This document shows positions 2,492 to 50,244 of a stretch of 64,000 bases of DNA, piece after piece (within the stretch, counting starts at the first letter, position 1; the number at the start of each line of letters is the position of its first letter). The notes beneath the pieces were generated by a model, which saw only the letters and a list, made by a program, of their open reading frames with translations, did not search any database and was not told the DNA's origin. The DNA is taken from the IMG/VR virus record IMGVR_UViG_3300011008_000004, positions 32,001 to 96,000 of that record. One strand, written 5' to 3'. A program made the translations under genes and the position numbers. The stretch is from a virus (lineage: Duplodnaviria > Caudoviricetes).

Positions 2492-5400
2492 TAATCAAAT
2501 TATTTGTTCTCTTCATCTACTAAGTCTCTATAATCTATTTCTAAATTTTTATTAGCCCATCGACCAAATTGTGTCTTATAATAATTAGGGTGTTCTTTCA
2601 AAAATTCATTTAATTGATTATTATAATCTTCTTCATCTAAGAAATATCTATAAGTATTATCTGGCATTTCTCTTTCTATCATAACTATTTCATCGGAATC
2701 TACAAATTGAAATTTCCCTTCATCATCACAATCGTAGAATCTTTGACACCATTCTACTTCTATAGTTTCGCCATCCGTAGTTACGTGTATATCATTATAG
2801 TATCCGCACTCAGATTTACTTGCAAACATTAATAAACTGTTTATAAATTCTAAGTGAAGACCTTTCTTAACATCTTCTTTTCCAAAAAATTGTACATTAT
2901 AATTTCTATTCATTCTATCACCTTATTTGCTAATTCTAGAATATCATGAGCTACTTTAATCATTGGTTTAACTATTTGCCATTCAGCATCAGCTATATCT
3001 AAAATTCTAGTGTCAACACTAGTTATTTCACAGCAACCGTGTACATTGTCCCATGCAATGTCCATAATTACATAATAATTATTTTCACTAAAACTCGATA
3101 ACTTATCTATGCATAAGCCTTCTTTTTCACTTACTTCTTCATGATTAATTTTGGTTATAGTGCATAATCTATAATTATTAGATTCTACAAGTACTTTCAT
3201 TTACATACCTCAACGATCTTCTAGTAAATCACAAGCGTAATCAGACAAATTTGTTTTAGGATATATTTCAAGTGCGTAATAAAGAATTATTGGAAATCCT
3301 GGTATCTCTAATAAGATCCAGAGTATATTACCAGTGAACGCTGAAGGCAGCGCTAATGCAGTAATAACTGCTATGATTGGTAAACATAACGTTGCAAGTA
3401 AAATTAGAACTCCAAAACAAAATTTTAAAAATTTCATATGCTACACCCCTTATGCAATGAATAATCATGCGCATTTTTTATAAATTCAGCTACTTCAGGA
3501 AATTTATCTACTTCAAAGCTGAATGTTACAGTTGCAATGTTGCTATATAAACTACACTCATTAGTAACTGATTCAATATGATGTCTAATGAATTCTAAAA
3601 TCTTAAGATCTCTAAAGATTAATTCATCATAGTCTTTATTTCGTTTATATTTATATCCAACATTAACCAGTTTATCACTTGACTCAACTAACGATTTATA
3701 CGCTTCTAAGCCTGTCATTAGATACCTTCTTTTTTACGTAAATCTAAATACGCCGATGTAAGCCTCTTAATATGTTCCTGTGTTCCAGGATAAGGCTCGA
3801 TCTCATCTTCTCTCACAAACACTGGACAGTTTATGTCTTCTGCTTTTAGTTGACCACACTTATATGCACTATATGCACGATCAAATTCAAATAGTACACC
3901 ATATTTCTTTTTATCATATCTAATCTGGTCTACTGGAAGTCTCTTAACTATAACAGCTCTTCTAATAGGATCTTTAAGAATTACTTCATCATTTACATCG
4001 TATAAATAAGATAATTCTAAAATTGTTTCTTTCAATTTCTCAGTAGCTTTAATTTGCTTTTTTAATTGTTTTTTAATTTTCTTAGCATATTGATCGGCTG
4101 TTTCTTTATCTAAATATCTATTAACTATGAAATCAACCGTAGGCACGTCTGATTTAACTACGTTATATAGTTCATTAGAAATATTGTTACTAACTTCCAA
4201 ATCTATTTTCTTTATACGTTCACTCATCAATTATTCACCTTATCATATCTTGTATATTTTAACGTTAAGTCTGCGTCATTTAAATTAGACCAAACATAAT
4301 CTATAAATATATTCCAGTTATTTTGAACTTGTTCAAACATATCTATCTTCTTAGATATGTCTAACTCTACGCTGTGTCTATAAGTAACTGGTTCACTCAC
4401 TAATTTTTCAAGTTCTTTATGCGTTATTGACGTAGGCCAGTCTGTTAAAACAATCTCACATTCACATCTAGACCAGAAATAGTATCTTAAAACTGTTTCT
4501 AATCTCTTAGCAAATACTTCATCTTTAAACTTATTGTTAAATCCACCAGCTTTCATACAAGTCTCTGGATTAAATTCTACGTTCATACCATTTTTATTAT
4601 AGGCATAGAACCAAGTTTCATTGAATTTTTTATAACCTTTTTTATATTCTTTACGAAGTTCAACTAGTTCTTCTCTTATAAAATCATAATCAAGAATATT
4701 TACTAACTCAATTTTATTGCTTGAACTTCTATGATACACATTAAAAATTAGTTCTTTCTTCATTCACTATATTCCTTAACTTTTTGCTCACAACTCCAGC
4801 ACATCATTGAGCCTCTATAAGTTTCGTCCATAGGTTCACCACACACTACACATACAGGTCCATTAGATGAAATCTTAGATACGTTATAAGCTGGTTTTGT
4901 CTCTATAGGTTCTACTAAATCATCTATGACAGCGATAACTATACCTACTTCATCTGTACAGTCTCTAAAACCGTCTATAGCTGGACAGATAGAAATTACT
5001 TCATTATCTCTATATGGACATTTCTCTACCTCAGGATGTACTTTGAAATATTCTTCTTCACCAGGACCTATAGCTATTTGCCAATCCATTCCCTTCCAAA
5101 GCAAATCCCACTCCCAAATCATGACTTTATCATCTTCTGGATCTGGAACTTTATGTTTATTATATAAATAAACCACATCGTTATGACTTACATATTTCTC
5201 TACAAATTCTACTAATTTCATCTTCACTCCTATAGCTTAAATAGAACAATTCCTGCTAAAAGTCCAATTAAAAAGCAAATCGCTGTTATTAACCAGTTCA
5301 TATCTCTTTACTCCTCACTTTTATATAGTATAGTCTTTAAATTCCTTGATTGTTTCTACGTTTGCGCTAATCATGCCATCATCTCTAACTTCATGTAAGA

Positions 5401-6801
5401 CAATATCACCATCTTTATTAACACAAACAACTACATCCCACATATCATTGCCGTATTCATTTCTTGCGCACAAAAGGACAAGCTTATTTTCTTTAATGGC
5501 TGCGATATTAGCAACAAGTAATTCACCTAAAACTTTTACAGCAGGGTTTTCATAGTTAGTACAGAACTTAATACCTGTAGCATATTCTGAATTAGAGTAT
5601 TCTGCTTCGTTCCTATATCTATTACCCCAAAGAACATCATCATAAAGTTCTTCGTTATTAGCTTCTTCAAAATCAATAATATCCCAATAATTTGCTACGC
5701 GTTCTCCATACCCTTTAGCTAAGATAAGATTATTTTCATCACCTGTAAAAATCTCATCTAAATATCTTTTAATTTCTTTTTTATCTAGTTTCATTAGTCG
5801 CAATCCTCTTCATTAGTTACTAATTCGAACTTCATTTCGTCAACATAATCATACCAGATAGATTCTTTACCAGGTTCGCAGCCATAATTTACTAAACCTA
5901 CTAAATATCTATCTCCTACTTTAATCATATTCACGAAATAATAGTAATTGCATTCTTCATCTTCATGATCTTTAAACCAAACTCTAAATAAGTCGGTATC
6001 TTTTACACAATTACTAAACCACGCTTCTATATCACCACAGAAGTTTTTACTTCTTTCATAAAAATCTTTATTTGTCATATAAAATCTCCTAAAGAATTAT
6101 ACAGATTTACTCTGTTCAGAAACAATATAATCATATAATTTTTCAGGAGATGATATGTCATAAAAGACTTCTTCATCATTTATAAATTCACTTATGCATT
6201 TATTAGATCCAGGTTCTCTACCAAAATCTCTTTCATACATAAAGTAACCTATAATGTCTCCACCATCAAATACATCATCAATTCTGTAATCAATTTTCAT
6301 GAGATCGCATAGCATCTTTCTCATCTTCTCAATAACATCTGTGAAGATAAAAATGCTATTAACATTTTGTGCACCAAAACACTTCGAGAGGTCCTTATTG
6401 AACTTTCGCTCCTTCTTAATTAGATTGTCTATATAATTTATATACTCTACAAATCTATCCTTAGAAATCATTGTTTTACATTCCTTATATATTACTTCAA
6501 CCAAGCGTCTCCAATGCTATTAAGATACTCTTTATCAAAATTCTTTTCTATAAAGTCATATCTATCGATGTCAGGAATTACTTTCTCTTCAATTAAAAAA
6601 GCAACATAATCTTCATAATTCATACAATCTATAATTGTCTTATTAGTTACGTCAAATTCTTTAGCAGTTTCGTCTATAGCTTTTGATACACTTTTAAGTT
6701 CTTTCTTATTTCTTTCAATAGCATCTCTATACTTATTCTCTAATTCAATTTCCTTTAAAACATCCATAATTGTGACACCTCAAAATTATTTTTATAAAGA
6801 T

Positions 6802-9490: not shown

Positions 9491-10525
9491 TTACTATTCC
9501 TTAATTATTTTATATTTTAATAAACTATAATATAGCTCATTTAATAATTTTATTTTCTATAAATTATCTGCTCTTGCTAAATAAGTTCTATAGCAAGTAT
9601 AACTGGTTGTGAACTCATTAATAGACTACTTAAAAATCTTTTTCTTAAGTTTTCTTCGTAACTTTTTCAGATACTAAGTTGTAGCTATCTAATAAACTTT
9701 ACCTTTATCATTTAATAAAAATTTAAAACCTAAAAATGTGACTCCCTTATATAGATGTGTGTAACTTGTTTTATCTTTATTTATCTATAAATCAACATCA
9801 TTAAGTTGCTAAGCTATCTTATCTATGTATGTCTAAGGCGAGCTATTAACAATCAATATCATATCATCCATATATCTAATATAAAACTTAACCTTTAAAG
9901 TTTCTTTTATATAATGATCAAGTTTATCTAAATATATCAAACCTAAAATCTAAACCAGCTATGATCCTGCGTTATAACCTATAGCATTATCATTATCGTA
10001 AACTTTTAATATATCATGAACTTTTGAAAAATATTCATCTTGTAATTTCTGTTTAAACAATGCTTCGCTTCTATTATGTCTTATGTTATTATAATACTTT
10101 TTAACGTCTATATGAATTAAATAACCTTTATTATCTCTATAAATTTCATAATACTGCCTTAAAAATTTCTTTAGAGATTGTCTAGCATAATCTGTGCCTT
10201 TATGTTTCTAACAAGCACAATTATAAGTTATTAAAGATCTAGTCATTGTTGGATATATCACTAAATCATTTAATAGTCTCTAATATATTCTATCTCTAAA
10301 TGATATTGCAAGTACTTCTCGTTCTTTTGGATCATGTATTTTAAATTTTTTATGTTTACGCTCTACATATGTATTACTATTTATTTCAGAATATAACTTA
10401 TATGTTTCTTCTAATTGATTTAAAACGTAATGCTAAACTGTTTTCTTCCATTTTACACCGTGAGAACATTTATTGCAACTATCATACAAATTATTAAAAG
10501 TATAAATATTATTAATATCTTTCAT
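9491..10525 (-). CDS. DGR reverse transcriptase, 344 aa in code 15
   Basis: One frame with 13 in-frame TAG and no TAA/TGA until 9491. Motifs: PKERE, FRDRIY(Q)R, CAC(Q)KHKG, IDVKKYY, GYNAGS(Q)LV(Q), YIRYMDD, FLGF. Confidence 0.95.
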
Positions 10526-16896: not shown

Positions 16897-16905
16897 TAAT
16901 TTAGC
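16897..16905 (-). promoter_or_regulatory. GCTAAATTA candidate phage-specific promoter
   Basis: Identical intergenic 9-mer at six sites upstream of minus-strand genes. Confidence 0.6.
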
Positions 16906-23264: not shown

Positions 23265-24535
23265 TTTGCATGATATTTTACAATAAATTCGTTGTCAACT
23301 GCTTTAAAAGAAGATTCCCCATCTAAAGCTCTCAACACTATACCTTCTCTCATTCCGCCATCAATTATCGATTCACCGCCTGCTAAAGCTAATAAATCAT
23401 CACAAGTTTTTGGAAGCTCAAAAGGATTATCTAATGTGTCTAAAACAGGAACACAAGCAAGATATCTATCGATGGATCTCTCTGATTCTTCCCATAAATC
23501 TTTGTTTATTTTTTGAATAACATCAACCATCTCTATAGGATTTAATCTTACAGGAGCTTTACCATTTTCTTTATAAATGTAATTAAATATAACAAGTTTA
23601 TGTTCTTTTCCATAGTTTCTTTTTTGAATTGAACCGCCATAAGTTTCACCTTGAATAGTTATATATTCATATTCAGGATGCTTATTAAGAATATAATTTA
23701 ATACCATATTCATATCATACTTAGCAGCCATTTCTAAATAAACATTACCATCAGAATCTTTATAGAAATTTCTCAATTCTTTTTCAGGAGTATTAAATAC
23801 TATATTTCTAGAACATACAAGCATTTCTCTCTTTTTAGGTTTTGCTTGTTTCATAGTAAAGGTAGTTGAAGTACCATCAATCTTTTCAGTTCTTATCCAT
23901 TTCTTATTAAGAGCTTTCATTTGATTGAAATTATTCTGACATCTCTCCTCGTCTGTTTTGATAACCCAAGAAGGCCAATCAGTTTTCTTGTCCTTTTTCT
24001 TACCCATAAAGAAGAAGCAAATCTTTCTTCCCCATTCTCTCTTCATAAGCCACTTACCAAGCTTAGTCTTAAAGAATTTCTTATGACGAGCTTGCATAGA
24101 TGTATATTTAGAATAATCTGCTTTTCTTTGATTATCTTCTTTTTCCCAATAAGTTATTCCTAACTTTTCAGTCAAAAATTCGCCTATAGCGATATCTTCT
24201 TTTAACTTACATTGATTTAAAGTCATTATCAATCCTGCAGATATTGCTTTACCTTTACAGAATTTTTGAACTTTAATCTTATGTCTATCTGCTCTCTTAT
24301 TTCCAGTAAATTCATCTATGCCTTCATTTAAGAAGTTAAAAATATCAGTATAAGGACATAAAGAATCTGGTTCAATAAATACGCACTTATCACCTATCTT
24401 AAAATCGTTTATTCCAGCTATGCAAGTCCAACCATTTACGTAATAAGTACAAATTTTATCATAACCTTCAATTCTTTTCATATCCGTTATAGTTGCTACA
24501 TAAGCTAATTCTCTTTCACCTTTTGAGTTTAACAT
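23261..24535 (-). CDS. RNA ligase (Rnl2/DRB0094-like)
   Basis: TEKIDGT adenylation motif, QGE, REGIV, SFKAV; N-terminal RELAYVATI domain. Confidence 0.85.
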   Translation of the reverse strand: MLNSKGERELAYVATITDMKRIEGYDKICTYYVNGWTCIAGINDFKIGDKCVFIEPDSLCPYTDIFNFLNEGIDEFTGNKRADRHKIKVQKFCKGKAISAGLIMTLNQCKLKEDIAIGEFLTEKLGITYWEKEDNQRKADYSKYTSMQARHKKFFKTKLGKWLMKREWGRKICFFFMGKKKDKKTDWPSWVIKTDEERCQNNFNQMKALNKKWIRTEKIDGTSTTFTMKQAKPKKREMLVCSRNIVFNTPEKELRNFYKDSDGNVYLEMAAKYDMNMVLNYILNKHPEYEYITIQGETYGGSIQKRNYGKEHKLVIFNYIYKENGKAPVRLNPIEMVDVIQKINKDLWEESERSIDRYLACVPVLDTLDNPFELPKTCDDLLALAGGESIIDGGMREGIVLRALDGESSFKAVDNEFIVKYHAN

Positions 24536-24547
24536 GATTCACCTCAA

Positions 24548-26437
24548 TTATTTATTCTTGTCTTTAGACAACATTCCTCTACATTTTGGATAACTCTTAC
24601 AGCCATAGAATTCTCCATAAGGTCCTTTTCTTAACACCATAGGTCCACCACAAATTGGACATGTTACTCCAGGAACAACTACAGCAGGAGTTTTAGGTGT
24701 TTTTGGAATACTAGCGCTATTTTTAGTTGCTGATTTAACGCTAGTTTCTAATTTATTATAAAAATCATTTAAGAAGTCTAACTTCTTTAATTTGCCACTT
24801 GCTACAGTATCCAACTCTGCCTCCATTTCAGCTGTATAAGTTAAGCTTATAAAGTTTGGAAACGCTAAATCTAAATATTTAGATAATGCAATACCTTTAT
24901 CTGTTGGAACTATACGTTTATCTTCAACTCTACAATAGCCTCTATTCTCATCTAAAAGTGTTGCAACTATAGACGAAAATGTTGATGGTCTACCTATCGA
25001 TTTCTGCTCAAGTTCTTTTACAAATGTAGCTTCATTGTATCTAGCAGGTGGTTGAGTAGCTTTCTCTAAACTCTCTAAAGAAGTTTCTTCTAACTTCTCG
25101 TCTATAATAAACGTATCTTTAGCTAATTCATCTTCTTCATCAGATTCTTTATAACTATATACTTTCTTATAGCCATCAAACTTTAACTCTTGAGAATTAA
25201 ATGTAAATTTATGATCTCCATTTAATATTTCATAAGTAGTTTCTGATGTTATTGAAGGAGCCATCATCGATTGAACAGTTCTTCTCCAAATCATATCATA
25301 AACTTTCAAAAGTTTTTCATCAGTTATATATTGTTTAAGATAGTCTTTAGTTATATTTAAATCTACTACTCTAAAACATTCATGCCCATCTTGAACATTT
25401 GCAGCTTTTTTAGGTTGTTTTAGAGGGGCATAATATGCTTGACCATACGTATTTTTTACATAACTCTCTAAAACTGGAATAAATTCCTTAGCCATAGAGG
25501 TTGAGTCAGTTCTTAAATAAGTAGTTAAAGCTATATGTTGTCCATTAACATTTATACCTTCAAACAACTTTTGAGCATAACCCATCGCAGTCTTAATTCC
25601 TACACCTAACTTTGAAGATACTTCTTGTTGAAATGTAGAAGTTGTAAATGGAGGTTTAGCGTTGCTAGTCTTATCTTTCATTGTTATATTTTTAATAATA
25701 TAATCTTTACCTTTACAATCACTAGCAATTGCTTTTGCTATAGCCTCATCAGTTATTCTTTTAACCTCTTTCTTAGTGGTTCCAAAATACTTCGCTTTAT
25801 ATGGATGCATGTTTTTATTAAAATGTAGCAATACATCGTAATATTTTTCAGGTTTAAAATTTTGAATTTCTAACTCTCTGTCCACTAAAATTTTAAGTCC
25901 AGCACTTTGACATCTACCAACTGATTTAGCACTTACCTGTCTTCTAGCAATTGGTGATAATCTAAAACCTACCATCTTATCTACACACATACGACAATGA
26001 CTAGAATCTACTAAATTATCATCTATGTCTGTAGGATTCGCTAAAGCATTAAGAACTGCTGTCTTAGTTATTTCGTGAAAGGTTGCTCTCTTACACTTCT
26101 CTTTTGGAATCTTTAAGAATTTCTTTAAAGACCAAGCAATAGCTTCTCCCTCTCTATCAGGGTCAGAACAAATATAAATCATATCAGATTTATCTACTTC
26201 ATCTTTAAGTTTCTTAACAACGTCTTTCTTATCGTCAGATACGTTTATATTCATCTTAAAACTATTATCTGGTTCAATTCCTGTATTCCAATAAGAACCT
26301 TTCTTATCAGACAATTCACTAATATGTCCAACTGAAGCCATTACTTTATAATTATTTGGTAAAAATTGAGAAATCGTCTTAATTTTGTTAAGTTAAGGCG
26401 ATTCTACGATGATAAGATATTTTAATAACTTACCCAT
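24548..26437 (-). CDS. topA: DNA topoisomerase IA, with in-frame TAA at codon 15
   Basis: DPDREGEAI, SVGRCQ, TYLRTDS, GRPSTF motifs and C-terminal Zn ribbon. True start MGKLLKYLIIVESP at 26437 with AGGAGG RBS, interrupted by TAA at 26393-26395. Confidence 0.9.
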
Positions 26438-26489
26438 AGAATCAAAAATCCTCCTTAAACGCGTAATTTATATTTTAATTATACAACTT

Positions 26490-27509
26490 TTAGTTTATTG
26501 CTTTTAATAAACCTTCAGCTGTAAGTCTACATTCTACTAAATCTTCTGCTCTATCAACAAGTGGTTCTGGTAATGCATACACTGACCCATTAACTGTCAA
26601 GTTCATAGTTCCTATAATCTTAAAACCTTCTTTAATATTTATAGTTGTTCCTTTATATATAAATTCAGTCTTATTATCAAGTAAGCTCTGAAGGAACCTG
26701 AGTGACTCAAAAGGCAATAGATTTATTTCATCTAATGTTATAGTTTCACCATTCATAATTGCTAACGCAAGAGCTGAAGGTTGAAAAGTTGCTTTGCCAT
26801 CATTAAATGTGAAATCTTCCATAAGATCTGAAGGTAACATCGCTGAGTGACAAACCATACACTTCCCATTGGTCTCTTTCAAAGCTTGTGTAGTTTTACC
26901 AGTTCCTTGTGGACCATAGTAAATCTTAAATCTTTTATTTATAATATTAGTTGGATTCTGCTTAGATAATATATCTAAAATCTCTGTAAATTCTTTGGAT
27001 GACATCTTATCTAAAATTGTAGATGCATAAGAATTATCAGTTAACTTAAAATAATTCTCAACATATTTACGTGCTCTATCATTCTTTAAATTTACAATTG
27101 TGTTTACAAATCTAAAATTAGGTTCAAACTGAAATTCTGAAAAGAAATTTATAAGTCTTTCTAAAGCTAATAACGCAACAGGTTTAGTTTCATCACTGCT
27201 TACAGTTGCTTTAAGTTGGTCATTCACTTGAGTAGGAACTTGTTGATCAATCATACTTTGTGTACTTATAAATGGATTAGGCGTATTGTCAACATCTACG
27301 TGATTGTCTAATAATTCCTTTATTAAAGGTTCTATTTGTGCTCTCTTTTCATCATCATCTAAATTTACACTATTTTGAATTTTATATATGTTAACTAACT
27401 TCGAAAATTCAACAGGATTATGAATAGTCTGCCAACCACCAAATATGTCTGTTTTCATAGTATGACTACCGCTCATCAATGTGATTGTTTGTCCTGTAAT
27501 TAACTTCAT
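26490..27509 (-). CDS. MoxR/CbbQ-like AAA+ ATPase
   Basis: GPQGTGKT, LDEIN, GTMN, LPEPLVDR. Confidence 0.8.
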   Translation of the reverse strand: MKLITGQTITLMSGSHTMKTDIFGGWQTIHNPVEFSKLVNIYKIQNSVNLDDDEKRAQIEPLIKELLDNHVDVDNTPNPFISTQSMIDQQVPTQVNDQLKATVSSDETKPVALLALERLINFFSEFQFEPNFRFVNTIVNLKNDRARKYVENYFKLTDNSYASTILDKMSSKEFTEILDILSKQNPTNIINKRFKIYYGPQGTGKTTQALKETNGKCMVCHSAMLPSDLMEDFTFNDGKATFQPSALALAIMNGETITLDEINLLPFESLRFLQSLLDNKTEFIYKGTTINIKEGFKIIGTMNLTVNGSVYALPEPLVDRAEDLVECRLTAEGLLKAIN

Positions 27510-36158: not shown

Positions 36159-37448
36159 TTAACATTCATGTATATGTATTCGCTCATGATGCTCATAATC
36201 AATACAAATTTTTCTTAAAATATTGCTATTATTATAATCTTTCCTTCTACACCAACATATATCTAACTAATCAGTATATAATAGCTAATGCGCAAATTCA
36301 TATAAATCTTTATTGCTAATTTCTTTTATATTTAATATTTTACAAAAAGATTTATAGTCTAATACATGTAAAATTAAACCTAAATTATGCATACTACTAC
36401 ATATTTCTTTGTATTTGTCAGCATCATAGCGCTATAAACTAGACTTTATCTCATAAAACTCATTATTTACTTTAAAATCAGGTAGATAAGAATATTTATT
36501 GCAATTAATTAAATTTATAGTTTCTGCTTCATATAAATAATCAATATTATTTAAATATAATGTGGCAGCTACCTTAAATTCTTCAAAACTTCTACAGTAT
36601 TTATGCAAACCTATATTTGGACATTTAAATTTTATACCATAAGAAGTAAGCTTAAATGTGCCGTCATATGCATATGCAGACTATCTTTCTGCTTGAAATT
36701 TACTTAATCTCTATCGTGCTTCAGGCGTTGAAGCAGGATTATTTTCGTGCCAGATTTGACGCTATAATTCACGAAGTTCTCTGCCTCTATCAGTGTCACT
36801 GTAAAATTTTTTCTTATTTTGTGATAAATTCTATTTATGCTTTTCTGTAAAAATATTCTTAACATTAACATCTAGATTGTAAGTCTTACAGTAATTTTCC
36901 CATGATATATTATGTGATCTTACAACATGATCTTTAATAGCTACACGATATTTACCACATATTTCACATTTAAATGGCTTATCAATATCATTTTCATCTT
37001 TATGTAATATAACATTGTGTTTCTATTTCAAATGTTTACAATATTCATTTTTATACTTAAACTCTTTTCCGCATATCTCACATCTGTAATAACCTATCTT
37101 TTTCTTAAGTTTAACAGATATAGGATATTCAGGATATTCTAATTTGTAATCGTTTATATCAACATAGCCATGTTGTTCACGTAAATGTCTAAGTAAAGAT
37201 ATCGCTTTTTTACCGCATATAGGACATATTACATATTCAGCATTGCGAGCTTGCTCATACTTATCTAATACATCTATGCATTCTTCATAGATATCTAAGT
37301 GATATTTATGAAGATGATGTTTTAAAGATTGCTGTGTAAAACTCTCTTTATAATGTTTACCGCATATAGGACATAGCTAATTGCCTACCTAATTCTTGCC
37401 TTCAAACTTTTTATAAATTAGATTGTATTTCTACTGAGTTGTTAACAT
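36159..37448 (-). CDS. C2H2 zinc-finger + PD-(D/E)xK endonuclease (putative homing endonuclease), 429 aa in code 15 (absent from ORF track)
   Basis: Open frame with 11 TAG; four CxxC...H...H fingers; RSFEE...YE...YLPDF...YEIK; GAGGT RBS. Confidence 0.85.
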
Positions 37449-39299: not shown

Positions 39300-39420
39300 G
39301 TGAACTACCGATAGCTGAAGCAATCGGCTTCCTGCTCAATGCAACCACTGTTGCAAGTATCAACAGGCTAACCCCGTAGTCCCTACGGTTTTTATAATTT
39401 TTATACTTTATTGATTATAC
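39300..39420 (-). ncRNA. TnpB omegaRNA scaffold
   Basis: Structured right end downstream of tnpB with stems TGCAAC/GTTGCA and CCGAT/ATCGG; 5' boundary unknown. Confidence 0.65.
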
Positions 39421-40526
39421 AGAAGTCTAAGTCCTTCATTCAGAATATTTATTGCCGCATTCTGATCTCTATTATGATGTGTTCCGCAATCTGGACAAGT
39501 CCATTCTCTTATAGAAAGAGAATTTACAATATCTTTGTGATAACAACCACATTCAGAACAAACAATGGTTGTAGGAGTAAATCTTCCTATTTTAACTAAT
39601 TGTTTTCCTTGAGATTCTAATTTCTGTTGAAGTCTTGTTCTAAAATAACCAAAAGCATTATCCATAGTTGATTTTCCTAGTCTTAGTGCTTGAGATTGAG
39701 CTTTCATATCAATATCTTCAATACAAATTATATCATATTTCTCTGCAAGTTTCTTAGATTCTTTTTCAATGAAATCTTTTCTTTGATTAGTTATTTGTTC
39801 ATGAATTTTTGCAACTTTAATCTTTTGTTTTTCATAGTTATTTGAGTACAATTTCATATGAGATAACTTACGTTGTTCTTTAGCTAATTTTGGTTGAGAT
39901 TTCTTGAATAATTTTACAAACCCCTCAGGTTTATTGTTTTGGCTATCAACATAAAACTCTGGAGCGCTGTAATCTAATCCAACTGCTTTATTTTTGTCTA
40001 ATTTTATTTCAGGTATTTCATACTCATATTCAGCAAGAATACTTATGAAATATTTACCTGAGTTTGTTTGAGAAATGGTTGCTGATTTTATAATGTAATC
40101 TTGCGGAATGAATCTATGTTCAACAAATTTAATAGGTCCAAGTTTGGGAAGCTGGATTCTATTATTAGAGATAATTCTTATTGAATTGTTTACACAATTA
40201 GTAGTATAAGATTTTTTATCAAATTTTTTCGATTTGAATTTAGGAAATCCATTTTTAATATTTCTAAAGAAATTATTATAAGCTGTTTGTAAATGCATTT
40301 GCTCATTAGCTAAAGCTAAAGAATCAACTTCTTTTAACCAATCGAATTCTTCTTTGTATTGAGCAGGTGTGTTTTTGAGATTAACCTTATCTTTCTTATA
40401 AGCCTCAATTTTATCAGCTAACATCTTATTGTAGATAAATCTACAGCAGCCAAATGTTTTTTGTAGTAATATTTCTTGCTCTTTATTTGGATACAGGCGA
40501 TATTTGAAACATTTATTCATGAACAA
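39408..40526 (-). CDS. tnpB: RNA-guided endonuclease TnpB
   Basis: KYRLYPN HTH; RuvC D/E/D intact (GLDY, IEDI, RDQNAA); CSECG...CPDCG Zn finger. Confidence 0.95.
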   Translation of the reverse strand: MFMNKCFKYRLYPNKEQEILLQKTFGCCRFIYNKMLADKIEAYKKDKVNLKNTPAQYKEEFDWLKEVDSLALANEQMHLQTAYNNFFRNIKNGFPKFKSKKFDKKSYTTNCVNNSIRIISNNRIQLPKLGPIKFVEHRFIPQDYIIKSATISQTNSGKYFISILAEYEYEIPEIKLDKNKAVGLDYSAPEFYVDSQNNKPEGFVKLFKKSQPKLAKEQRKLSHMKLYSNNYEKQKIKVAKIHEQITNQRKDFIEKESKKLAEKYDIICIEDIDMKAQSQALRLGKSTMDNAFGYFRTRLQQKLESQGKQLVKIGRFTPTTIVCSECGCYHKDIVNSLSIREWTCPDCGTHHNRDQNAAINILNEGLRLLYNQ

Positions 40527-47758: not shown

Positions 47759-47789
47759 TACATAACCTCTCTTTATATTTCTTTATATT

Positions 47790-47818
47790 ATTATACATTA
47801 TAAAAAGAAAATAGTCAA
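47790..47818 (-). promoter_or_regulatory. Sigma70-type promoter
   Basis: TTGACT-17-TATAAT after a terminator hairpin. Confidence 0.8.
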
Positions 47819-47890
47819 CTATTTTTAGCAAAATAAAAGCACTGAGATATCATTATCCCAGTGCTAAATAACTTAGTAATAACGTTTATA

Positions 47891-48631
47891 TTATATATAC
47901 GAATATACTACACCACAACCATGCGTATCATTAGCTGTATAACTTAAGCCATAATCATGATAATATAATACACCACTACCATCATGTAAACTACTAATTA
48001 AATCTAATGTAAAACCAGATATAGTTTCTCCCGGTGTATCCTCTGTTTCATTATTTACATCGTTATTTATCTTATAATTGACTCTAACCCTATCAGTGTT
48101 ATTAAAAATCCAAATAGCAAATTTTGGATTAGAGCTATCTAAAATTCCTAAATCATAGGTTTTAGTAGAACCGTTATAGGAAATATCTAACTTCAAATGC
48201 CAATTTTCAGTTCTTAACCAAATATTAGTTTTACCTGTATGAGATGTGCTTTCATCAGAACTAAAACAAATCACATTACCAGTAGAACGCAATATACTGT
48301 TTCCTGCGCTAAAATAAATAGCTTCAGGAACCACGCCCGCTGAAATATAACTAGAATGACTACTAGCACTAACTGGAAATGACATATTTATTTTAACCAT
48401 AGCTGGATTTAGTTTATTACTAGTATTATATATAGGGTAATTTGGATCCCAATCTTTATTTCCATAATAAGGCCCGCCATAGTAATAATACAACCTATTA
48501 TTATTTAATGCTTTACTAGAATCCATAATAGCTGTATGCTTACGACCGATGATATTATGGTTGTCGTCTATTGCGTAAATATCATGAACCTTTTTGTTAT
48601 TTTGCGTTATATAGTGGGTTATTTTAGACAT
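47891..48631 (-). CDS. Hypothetical beta-rich protein (likely virion/tail associated)
   Basis: ORF track; S/T/N/Y-rich; follows the adhesin-like gene. Confidence 0.55.
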   Translation of the reverse strand: MSKITHYITQNNKKVHDIYAIDDNHNIIGRKHTAIMDSSKALNNNRLYYYYGGPYYGNKDWDPNYPIYNTSNKLNPAMVKINMSFPVSASSHSSYISAGVVPEAIYFSAGNSILRSTGNVICFSSDESTSHTGKTNIWLRTENWHLKLDISYNGSTKTYDLGILDSSNPKFAIWIFNNTDRVRVNYKINNDVNNETEDTPGETISGFTLDLISSLHDGSGVLYYHDYGLSYTANDTHGCGVVYSYI

Positions 48632-48646
48632 ACTTTATCCCCATTA

Positions 48647-50062
48647 TCAATTAAAAACTATGCCTTCTATATTAGAAGCAGTATTAGCATGATTCACATT
48701 ATTAATGGTAAAATATATAGGTTTATCATTGATACTACCAGCAACCGTAGCATTAGTAGCTACTAAAGTAGCAGTATTATCCCCTTTTCTCCAAACATCT
48801 GTGTCATCTACAGGGGCTACGTTCACTTTTAAATTCCCAGTCATAGTGCTACCTGATTTATAGACAAAATAAGTACCTACAAAATTATTTACCCAAGTTT
48901 CAAGATATTTTCTATTTACTACGCCTTCATCATCTTTAGGGGCCGACATTACTCTAGCTGAGCCATCTTCATAAACTTCAAATGCATTACTTTGTACACT
49001 TCCAGCTTGAAGGCCGTTACCTACAATAAAATACGCGCTATTATTTTCTTTATTACTAATGCCAATTACTGTTTGATATGGCCTTGTGGCTTTTAAGTTA
49101 TTACCGAAAGCAAAAGACGCGAATTGAGACGCTGTGCACGCATTTCCACCAGCAAATGAACTCTCCCCGCTAGCTATGCATGCATAACCTTGCGCGTGTG
49201 AATGTTCTCCACTAGCTATAGTAGACATACCTTCTGCGTGAGCACCTCTTGCAGTTGCTTGAGTGCCATCACCTTCTGCGTGCGCCCAACAATTATCAAC
49301 GCTAGTCATATTAGGGTTTCCAACTATACAGTCACCGCCTGTAGCAAAAGCCCCACGTCCATATAACGTATTACCAGAACCTAACGCAACACTTCTTTCA
49401 CCGTTTACAGTATTACCTTTACCTAATGCCGCAGAATATCTATCATTGATAACATTGTTAACTCCTGCTATGAATGATGCCTTGCCTTCATTGTTATTGT
49501 TAACTCCTGATATGAATGATGTCTCGCCTTCATTATTATTGGACTTCCCATTTATAAATGAAGCCATACCATTATTGCTGTTACCAAAGCCACTAACTAA
49601 ACTCGCAACGCCTAAATTAGGATCCATAGCACTGCCATTTATGTTATTCGCGCCAAGAACCATACTTGAAATCCCGTAATTACCATTACTTACATTAGTA
49701 GTGATTCCTAAACCTGCAAGAATATATCTAGTAGAACCTTCTTGTGTTATAGGTCCATCAGCAATCTGCTCAGCCATTGCCTGTGTCATACCTTGTGATA
49801 CAAGGTATGCAACTACCACCGGACGAATATAAGCATTTAATTCTACATAAGAAGCTCCTTTCTACACAAGCGAACTAAGACCCACACCATTCTATAAATT
49901 ATCATTATTAGATGTAATAGACTCTAATAAATTTAACTATGTAGAACCATCACCTATATATAACTTATTCTCGGTCTTATCATAAAATGGCTAACCATCA
50001 AGTAAACGCAAGGTACTGCTTTTTCTTTTCTCTGAGGTACCTCTCATAATCTAAATTGACAT
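48647..50062 (-). CDS. Tail-fibre/adhesin with Mtd-N-like anchor and YadA-head-like repeats, 471 aa in code 15
   Basis: MSI(Q)IMRGT...DG(Q)PFYDKTENKLYIGDG extends the track ORF by 81 codons through 5 TAG; AHAEG and SxAxG 14-mer repeats. Confidence 0.85.
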
Positions 50063-50210
50063 AAATAAAAAACGCTCCTTTTTACTTGGAGCGCTTTAAT
50101 CTATGATAAAAATGTAAAAACTCCCTCCCACTCAACTATTTCTTAGGGTACTCTAAGTTTACTGAGGGGGGGGGACGCGTAGCTTCTACATTTCATCTAA
50201 CGCTCCAAAA
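50063..50210 (-). ncRNA. Structured leader RNA (long rod with alternative terminator)
   Basis: Nested complementary segments with G-U pairs on the minus strand; downstream of GCTAAATTA at 50227-50235. Confidence 0.65.
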
Positions 50211-50244
50211 ATTTTCAATTTATAAGTAATTTAGCCACCTAAAG

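Follow-up and report, generated by a model that had tools for sequence, protein, structure and literature searches.

A predicted bistable leader RNA with a candidate contingency tract ahead of a TAG-recoded tail-fibre-like gene of a jumbo phage

The subject of this analysis is a spacer of 183 nt that lies between a peptide-deformylase-like gene and a tail-fibre-like gene in a 64,000-nt stretch of gut-phage DNA (the window), which represents bases 32,001-96,000 of the single 214,257-bp contig of IMG/VR record IMGVR_UViG_3300011008_000004 (G000; GC 29.7%), with all genes on the minus strand. We propose that this spacer is the 5' leader of the fibre gene, an accessory gene with in-frame TAG codons. 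Based on its predicted folds, our leading but still tentative reading is that the leader most likely serves as a cis-acting gate on the ribosome binding site (RBS) of the fibre gene and that this gate is coupled to a homopolymeric contingency tract. In terms of structure modelling the leader is best described as a bistable Shine-Dalgarno (SD)/anti-SD element with an embedded candidate contingency tract, and both kinds of control, translational attenuation and phage contingency, are already known.

The minus-strand RNA of the spacer folds into a rod of 45 bp (50086-50208) that consists, from its base to its apex, of a 10-bp basal stem (UUGGAGCGUU with AAGCGCUCCAA), a 9-nt bulge on the 3' side (AUAGAUUAA), a 16-bp middle helix with three G-U pairs (GAUGAAA-UGUAGAAGCU with AGUUUUUACAUUUUUAUC), a 6-nt bulge on the 5' side (ACGCGU), a GC-rich core with two 1x1 mismatches in which C9-UCAG (CCCC-CCC-CUCAG) pairs with UUGAGUGGGAGGG, and an apical CUUAG/CUAAG hairpin. 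Every pairing listed in a preliminary description of this DNA, which had been made from the letters alone, is present in the minus-strand sequence. That description also held that the G-U pairs work on this strand only. The pairs are there, but the strand bias is weak, as the 5 G-U pairs of the rod against a single A-C mismatch only mildly favour the minus (transcribed) strand (about p = 0.1). The rod alone (50085-50210) has a predicted folding energy of -45.5 kcal/mol compared with -23.6 +/- 3.0 kcal/mol for 200 dinucleotide shuffles (z = -7.4), and folding of the full spacer gives z = -3.7 for the minus strand and -2.5 for the plus strand. When 10,706 segments of 140 nt from the whole genome are ranked by stability, the rod comes third, and the only segments that are more stable are a tRNA region and a region of 54% GC.

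The closed rod is one of two mutually exclusive structures that are built around the same short sequence. The anti-SD box CGCUCC (50088-50093, minus strand) has two possible partners, which are identical GGAGCGUU boxes. The first partner is box 1 (UUGGAGCG, 50201-50208, minus strand), which forms the 5' strand of the basal stem and also contains the SD (GGAG, 6-nt spacer) of a putative upstream open reading frame (uORF). The other is box 3, the second GGAGCG, which lies 15 nt downstream of CGCUCC. In state A, the anti-SD is paired with the upstream box, which closes the 45-bp rod, hides the SD and AUG of the uORF, and leaves the fibre SD free. In state B, it is taken up by a hairpin with the downstream box (50060-50105, minus strand; AUAGAUUAAAGCGCUCC, a 9-nt loop, and GGAGCGUUUUUUAUUUAUG; -18.7 kcal/mol) that covers both the fibre SD (50073-50078) and the fibre AUG (50060-50062) and is followed by a U6 tract (50067-50072). 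The preliminary description had pointed out that CGCUCC can instead pair with a downstream GGAGCG followed by U6, that this pairing excludes the other, and that it buries the likely RBS of the next gene, and we find the same on all three counts, with the two states differing by about 1 kcal/mol or less. Specifically, the predicted energies are -56.8 kcal/mol for state A and -56.2 kcal/mol for state B, with ensemble probabilities of 0.72 and 0.28, and the gap between them does not exceed about 1-2 kcal/mol in every transcript prefix that contains at least part of the U-tract, and with either of two assumed 5' ends. The coding strand of the 214-kb genome contains only four copies of GGAGCG and five of CGCTCC, and two of the former and one of the latter lie within 130 nt in the leader. 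Since these hexamers are so rare genome-wide, their clustering in the leader is not due to chance. The predicted accessibility of the fibre RBS is 0.24-0.26, and in a comparison of 261 genes its value of 0.24 is the 20th lowest.

Just upstream of the structure, as the preliminary description had it, is a GCTAAATTA motif (50227-50235, minus strand), and the ATG codons of the uORF and the fibre gene follow it at distances of 38 and 173 nt. All 30 copies of this motif in the genome are on the coding strand, 22 of the 30 are intergenic, and most are located 22-64 nt before a start codon. Those in the window (minus strand) are at 16897, 37615, 39266, 40673, 50227, and 60001, and another (genome 3076) is found ~400 nt upstream of the first of the two tRNA(CUA) genes of the phage. 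The motif is not confined to TAG-containing genes. A related phage, G001 (IMGVR_UViG_3300045988_167787, 233,057 bp), has the same motif, with 26 forward and no reverse copies compared with 2 for a control pattern; it is kept there despite the deformylase-like proteins of the two phages being only 48% identical. On these sequence grounds GCTAAATTA is a phage promoter motif, and transcription of the leader would start a few bases after it.

The putative uORF (50143-50196, minus strand; MKCRSYASPPLSKLRVP) has 17 codons and a stop codon. It follows the 5' arm of the rod, passes through the C9 tract, and ends in the apical hairpin. The 6-nt spacing of its SD is the genome optimum, 5-8 nt being the mode for GGAG sites in this phage, and the 12-nt spacing of the fibre SD is in the tail of the phage distribution. 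Three of the uORF codons are CCC, which ranks second among the rarest codons of the phage (31 of 62,795), the CCC-CCC dicodon is absent from all phage ORFs, and the stretch TCC CCC CCC CTC represents four of the six rarest codons. We propose that a ribosome loaded on the uORF would hold the 5' arm open and so favour state B, that translation of the uORF and translation of the fibre would in this way be antagonistic, and that the TCC CCC CCC CTC codons would slow the uORF ribosome. When a ribosome footprint was masked in silico at the uORF start, at CCC CCC, or at the uORF stop, state B was the structure of minimum free energy in each case. A direct fusion of the uORF to the fibre by slippage was also considered and was rejected, as TAA closes the frames 12 codons upstream of the fibre ATG.

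In the translational attenuation of ermC and cat, a leader peptide acts together with alternative hairpins, and it depends on these whether the SD of the regulated gene is buried or free. The G000 leader resembles these systems in having a short leader ORF with its own SD in one arm, in having the regulated SD and start codon in a competing hairpin, which here is that of state B, and in that the position of the leader-ORF ribosome would, as predicted by the in silico masking, set the pairing. It differs from them in its reversed polarity, such that the uORF ribosome would favour the OFF hairpin, in that the SD of the leader ORF is itself one of the competing partners, and in having a far longer rod (45 bp), and there is no sequence relationship.

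The second part of the proposed gate is the C9 homopolymer itself (50166-50174, minus strand; G9 on the plus strand), which pairs with GGGAGGG of the 3' arm of the rod. It is the sole G or C run of at least 7 in the 214,257 bp, which bears out the remark in the preliminary description that such a run is unusual in this AT-rich genome. Contingency loci are recognized as homopolymers of at least about 8 that are over-represented relative to the genome background and tied to a surface or host-range gene, and the run in the fibre leader has these properties. We propose that it is probably a hypermutable contingency tract and that it would add a phase-variable layer to fibre expression.

Support for this comes from G001, in which the gene order is as in G000, with the deformylase-like gene followed by a 209-nt leader and a TAG-recoded fibre gene (P0245, 850 aa) that is homologous to the G000 fibre (P0001) in the N-terminus, the head repeats, and the neck. 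The G001 leader is strongly structured (z = -5.7) and forms a 14-bp long-range helix in which UAUUUAAUAUUUCC pairs with GGAGAUAUUAAAUG, the latter comprising the fibre SD and AUG (P(unpaired) 0.01). It contains a G9 run (178136-178144) within a small uORF whose start is 6 nt past the stop codon of the deformylase-like gene. Only one other G/C run of at least 7 (24270-24278) is present in the 233 kb of G001, and a second gene of this fibre family (24154-26503) contains it. This gene is split exactly at the G9 (codons ...LSIGGG) into a 52-aa N-terminal ORF and, in the +1 frame, an ORF of 726 aa. Beyond the run the +1 frame stays open, and a run that is one base shorter would restore a single ORF. 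From its sequence, the split gene is a candidate for a phase-variable receptor-binding protein or else the product of a homopolymer assembly error. Ten other genomes of the clade (1.55 Mb) have no G/C run of at least 8 except for a G12 at one contig end (IMGVR_UViG_3300045988_157455, G005; 164548-164559, 11 bases from the end), which is most likely a poly-G sequencing artefact rather than a biological tract. All three internal G:C 9-mers of the clade are tied to this fibre family, and two of the three are in long structured leaders at the orthologous locus.

Hypermutable polyG tracts in the receptor-binding genes of Campylobacter phages (Sorensen et al., 2021, Cell Rep 35:109214, as cited in PMC8766974) and homopolymer contingency loci in T2/T4 (Gomez et al., 2025, bioRxiv 10.1101/2025.10.21.683753) have been reported. 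The phages described here are like these in that their G:C 9-mers occur only in association with host-recognition genes and the rest of the genome is free of such runs, and the second fibre ORF of G001, frameshift-split at its run, has the textbook arrangement. The difference is that the G000 leader tract and the orthologous G001 tract are located in a structured 5' leader and inside a small uORF, not in the fibre ORF.

The preliminary description saw in the same pairings an intrinsic terminator and hence a possible attenuator. In this classic transcription attenuator, CGCUCC/GGAGCG and U6 would form the terminator, the basal stem would be the antiterminator, and read-through would be set co-transcriptionally, for example by uORF translation or a phage factor. 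Established leader-peptide attenuators are those of the trp and his operons and mgtP, the proline-codon leader of Salmonella mgtCBR. The G000 leader shares with them the exclusive antiterminator-like and terminator-like pairings, with CGCUCC, the 5' strand of the terminator, pairing with either GGAGCG box and with the U6 directly after the stem, and it also has a cluster of slow codons in the leader ORF, in this case Pro-Pro encoded as CCC CCC. Folding of transcript prefixes puts states A and B within 1 kcal/mol once the U-tract has been transcribed. In addition, sequence inspection and a terminator scan found no terminator between the deformylase-like gene and the leader, and as there is no other terminator between that gene and the fibre, upstream transcripts run into the leader element. 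However, the core hairpin is weak, having 6 GC-rich bp, a 9-nt loop, and a predicted energy of -8.9 kcal/mol, which is in the weak quartile of the 59 hairpin-plus-U sites of the phage (median -11.3), it is the only one of these with a 9-nt loop, and the site is not called by a consensus terminator scan. Moreover, the antiterminator should win by default, because the 5' partner is made before the other and stacks on the rod. The systems also differ in that the control codons of the G000 leader come from a homopolymer and that the downstream gene is structural rather than a biosynthetic operon. Finally, the G001 leader keeps the burial of the SD and AUG and shows no clear hairpin-plus-U-run, that is, what the analogue retains is burial of the RBS and not the terminator. 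The pairings and the U6 tract are real, but the terminator reading is weakened by the feeble hairpin and by the lack of a clear G001 counterpart, and we consider a transcription attenuator to be unlikely.

We would give no greater chance to an element for RNA processing or stability. The duplex would then be a site of RNase III cleavage or would stabilise the 5' end, so as to part the fibre mRNA from the operon upstream or to protect it, with the alternative pairing being only incidental. Both hairpins between cistrons that RNase III cuts and stabilisers at the 5' end are well established in phages, as in the T7 R sites and the lambda N leader, and in the latter cleavage by RNase III frees the RBS. 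The G000 rod is likewise a long irregular hairpin between phage cistrons that is linked to RBS accessibility, its 16-bp helix is coaxial with the 10-bp basal stem to give about two helical turns of double-stranded RNA, a geometry compatible with an RNase III site, and it begins within about 15 nt of the presumed 5' end. Such an element would nevertheless leave unexplained the GGAGCG / CGCUCC / GGAGCG triple of rare hexamers, the isoenergetic balance of the two states, and the homopolymer that is common to G000 and G001. The T7 and lambda elements do not have the competing identical SD boxes or the homopolymer.

Several results weigh against the proposal of a translational gate coupled to a contingency tract. 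Burial of the fibre RBS is only partial and, at the 7th percentile, is not extreme. The run of rare codons in the uORF follows automatically from a C9 in an AT-rich genome and so is not independent evidence. The leaders of G000 and G001 cannot be aligned in either orientation, and no alignable homologue of the G000 leader was found, hence there is no support from covariation. The length of the run leaves the predicted accessibility of the SD unchanged in both the G000 and the G001 leaders, and the idea that run length alters the RNA folding was rejected as no effect is predicted. The suggestion in the preliminary description that the run could slip has, in the G001 tracts, the best comparative support of any of its interpretations, but there is no length variation between the two available assembly records of G000. 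The second record (ENA ERZ3810914, 206,736 bp) shows 0 differences over 7,173 bp, the C9 included, and no length polymorphism was seen. Two pattern scans for run-length variants were also empty, although gapped pattern scans across homopolymers may miss true matches, and indeed the gapped pattern for G001 missed G001 itself in the viral contigs.

What the run length does change in the G000 leader is the position of the uORF stop. With C8 (or C11), the uORF continues through an in-frame UAG and across the anti-SD to end 6 nt before the fibre SD, and the G10 frame of the G001 leader likewise spans the anti-SD. An open frame across the anti-SD is also present, however, in 48% of shuffles of the G000 leader and 77% of those of the G001 leader, which counts further against the coupling, and the openness of these alternative frames was rejected as evidence because it is at the level of chance. 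A readout of run length by way of the open frame (C8; G10) is compatible with the data but unsupported. In its most elaborate form this would be a two-key gate, in which the C8/C11 uORF is read through the UAG and across the anti-SD and so unmasks the fibre gene and couples ribosomes into it only with amber suppression on and only in genomes or transcripts that have slipped, a model that we regard as improbable.

The preliminary description offered a standalone rod-shaped noncoding RNA as an alternative, and in this case the rod would be a trans-acting small RNA of about 150 nt with the promoter motif at its 5' end and its own hairpin plus U6 as terminator. The order of the parts is indeed right for this, with the promoter motif first, then the structured body, and last a 3' end that resembles a terminator. 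Searches for a family or relatives of such an RNA were negative. The Rfam/Infernal check suggested in the preliminary description matched no family, as there was no match in Rfam 15 at the gathering threshold over the 64 kb and only noise at E up to 10 over 401 nt (best score 20.7 bits against a gathering score of 70), the known families considered including T-box, HDV-like/theta ribozymes, 6S, riboswitches, and sRNAs. With 2.6 kb as the query, blastn matched none of 50,697 phage records, and the genome has no second copy of the rod, only short matches at chance level. Exact and gapped rod patterns in IMG/VR, the JGI metagenomes, and the GTDB genomes returned either nothing or chance hits that were unrelated GC-rich sequences or matched a 19-mer only, and hence no conservation is seen in these collections. 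Furthermore, what would be the terminator of such an RNA is the SD and AUG of the fibre gene itself, and the G001 leader is without the promoter motif. We therefore find no support for a standalone RNA and consider it very improbable. A T-box-like element that senses the suppressor tRNA, based on a UAG in the 9-nt bulge and UGGA in box 1, was also considered and is regarded as remote, as there is no model match and too few of the bases are constrained.

The leader and the fibre gene belong to a cassette that is variable among relatives. Approximately 40 gut-metagenome contigs encode a deformylase-like protein that is about 80% identical to that of G000, and among the 13 of these contigs that were fetched, 11 extend past the deformylase-like gene. 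All 11 are without the leader, the fibre gene, and the 246-aa ORFan that follows it in G000, and a DNA ligase gene follows directly in each. The sigma-70-type promoter of the ligase gene (TTGACT-17-TATAAT) is conserved in G000 and in the relatives that lack the cassette, as seen in a comparison of window positions 47760-50244. In the wider clade, however, the rule is that the deformylase-like gene is followed by a fibre-like one, as in 12-15 of 17 other IMG/VR loci, where the gap is -23 to 59 nt and there is no leader. This tempers the reading, suggested by the relatives with 80% identity, of an insertion (moron) into an early block, and the fibre cassette is therefore better seen as variable than as a simple insertion.

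A further reading is that the rod is a non-functional relic. It would be an imperfect palindrome that goes back to an inverted duplication, to a small palindromic mobile element, or to cassette exchange at a variable locus, with the homopolymer as a mutational by-product. An 8-bp direct repeat (GGAGCGTT) flanks a segment of 122 nt whose excision leaves ~45 nt between the promoter and the ATG, which is typical for this phage, the nearest relatives (deformylase-like protein 80% identical) are without the whole fibre cassette, and IS605-type elements are present in the phage. On the other hand, the element is single-copy and has no similarity to the insertion sequence ends of the phage, a 19-mer taken from the rod gave no true match in any of 185,579 species genomes, and there are no terminal inverted repeats at the boundaries of the direct repeats. 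With a single copy and no true GTDB hits, the rod does not have the character of a miniature inverted-repeat transposable element (MITE) or of an IS200-IS605-derived palindromic element (PATE). The balance of G-U pairs to A-C mismatches on the transcribed strand (5 to 1) and the presence in G001, at the same locus, of an independent, unalignable leader with the same features also argue against a relic, which we judge to be less likely than either an attenuator or a processing element.

The IS605-type elements of the phage seem, from their sequence context, to sit just downstream of GCTAAATTA, and it should be noted that the other long GCTAAATTA leaders are the left ends of tnpB (IS605-type) elements, for which reason a class of leaders consisting of promoter plus rod was rejected for this phage. 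A tnpB at window positions 39408-40526 is preceded by GCTAAATTA and several hairpins. A second tnpB-like gene (genome 196140-197223, minus strand), which is split into ORFs of 303 and 94 aa and has 2 TAGs, is preceded by a rod of ~105 nt directly behind GCTAAATTA. Elsewhere in the window, positions 5818-5957 (minus strand) form a near-perfect rod of 140 nt with a predicted energy of -40.5 kcal/mol at only 30% GC, and this overlaps the ORFs at 5321-5803 and 5794-6078.

The gene that the leader precedes (P0001, 48647-50062, minus strand; 471 aa) was called an adhesin gene in the preliminary description. It is more accurately a tail-fibre-like gene with YadA-head-like repeats and five in-frame TAG codons, all within codons 1-67, and it is homologous to the G001 fibre. 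The start codon at 50062 is, by sequence comparison, the true fibre start, because a paralogue within the phage (P0243) aligns from Met1 (MSIQIMRGTS versus M-IQLRRGTS) and has CAA Gln at two positions where P0001 has TAG. The alignment of an unrecoded relative spans two further TAGs of the fibre. The TAG codons align with CAA/CAG Gln in the paralogue and in G001, the paralogue supporting Gln as the meaning of TAG, and at the same 'G-E-P' position Glu is found in the wider clade. A gene with collagen-like Gly-X-Y repeats (genome 166190-166996, minus strand) immediately precedes the paralogous fibre gene, and the GC-rich repeats of this collagen-like gene give spurious signals of stable structure in folding scans. 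A rod ahead of the paralogue was considered and rejected, as the structures there are these GC-rich coding repeats and the spacer has an ordinary terminator.

On the other side of the leader, the peptide-deformylase-like gene (P0002, 50245-50892, minus strand; Pfam PF01327, 4.5e-20; PHROG 2890) has no TAG codons. Downstream of the fibre gene and in the same orientation is the 246-aa ORFan (P0242, 47891-48631, minus strand), and beyond it come a strong terminator (-15.2 kcal/mol at 47838) and the ligase gene with its sigma-70-type promoter. No homologue of the ORFan was found in 5.8 billion proteins, nor does it match Pfam or PHROG, and it may be a fibre chaperone or the distal receptor-binding part of the fibre.

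The recoding of the fibre gene is part of a genome-wide pattern. In-frame TAG is found in about a third of the phage ORFs, window genes with TAG recoding including those at 9491-10525, 36159-37448, and 48647-50062, and the genome contains two tRNA(CUA) genes (2606-2680 and 163136-163233), both of which are outside the window. Because a third of its ORFs contain in-frame TAG and because of these two tRNA genes, the phage is, as far as its sequence tells, a TAG-recoded jumbo phage of the type described by Borges et al. and Peters et al. In stop-codon-recoded gut phages, recoding has itself been described as a regulatory layer (bioRxiv 10.1101/2021.08.26.457843; PMC9523058). G000 is similar to these phages in that in-frame TAG occurs in a subset of genes that includes the fibre and in having two tRNA(CUA) genes, and it is different in that a structured leader stands in front of the recoded gene. 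We know of no description of a structured leader ahead of a recoded gene, although no dedicated literature search was made.

Tail fibres decide which bacteria a phage infects. Large gut phages with TAG recoding are abundant, most of them have not been cultured, and their regulation is poorly understood. The leader described here, with its two predicted states, one anti-SD box, one uORF, and one homopolymer, could show how recoded phages set the dose of an accessory host-recognition protein or diversify it. If the rod is only a stability hairpin, then the finding is an ordinary one. If, however, the homopolymer is hypermutable, then phage contingency loci would be extended from coding frameshifts to a 5' leader, and the ratios of C8, C9, and C10 reads would be a marker of phase-variable host range in metagenomes. 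Should the two-key gate prove to be true, the contingency tract would act by way of a regulatory uORF in an RNA switch and would be read out by a reassigned stop codon, which would join the code switch of these phages to phase variation.

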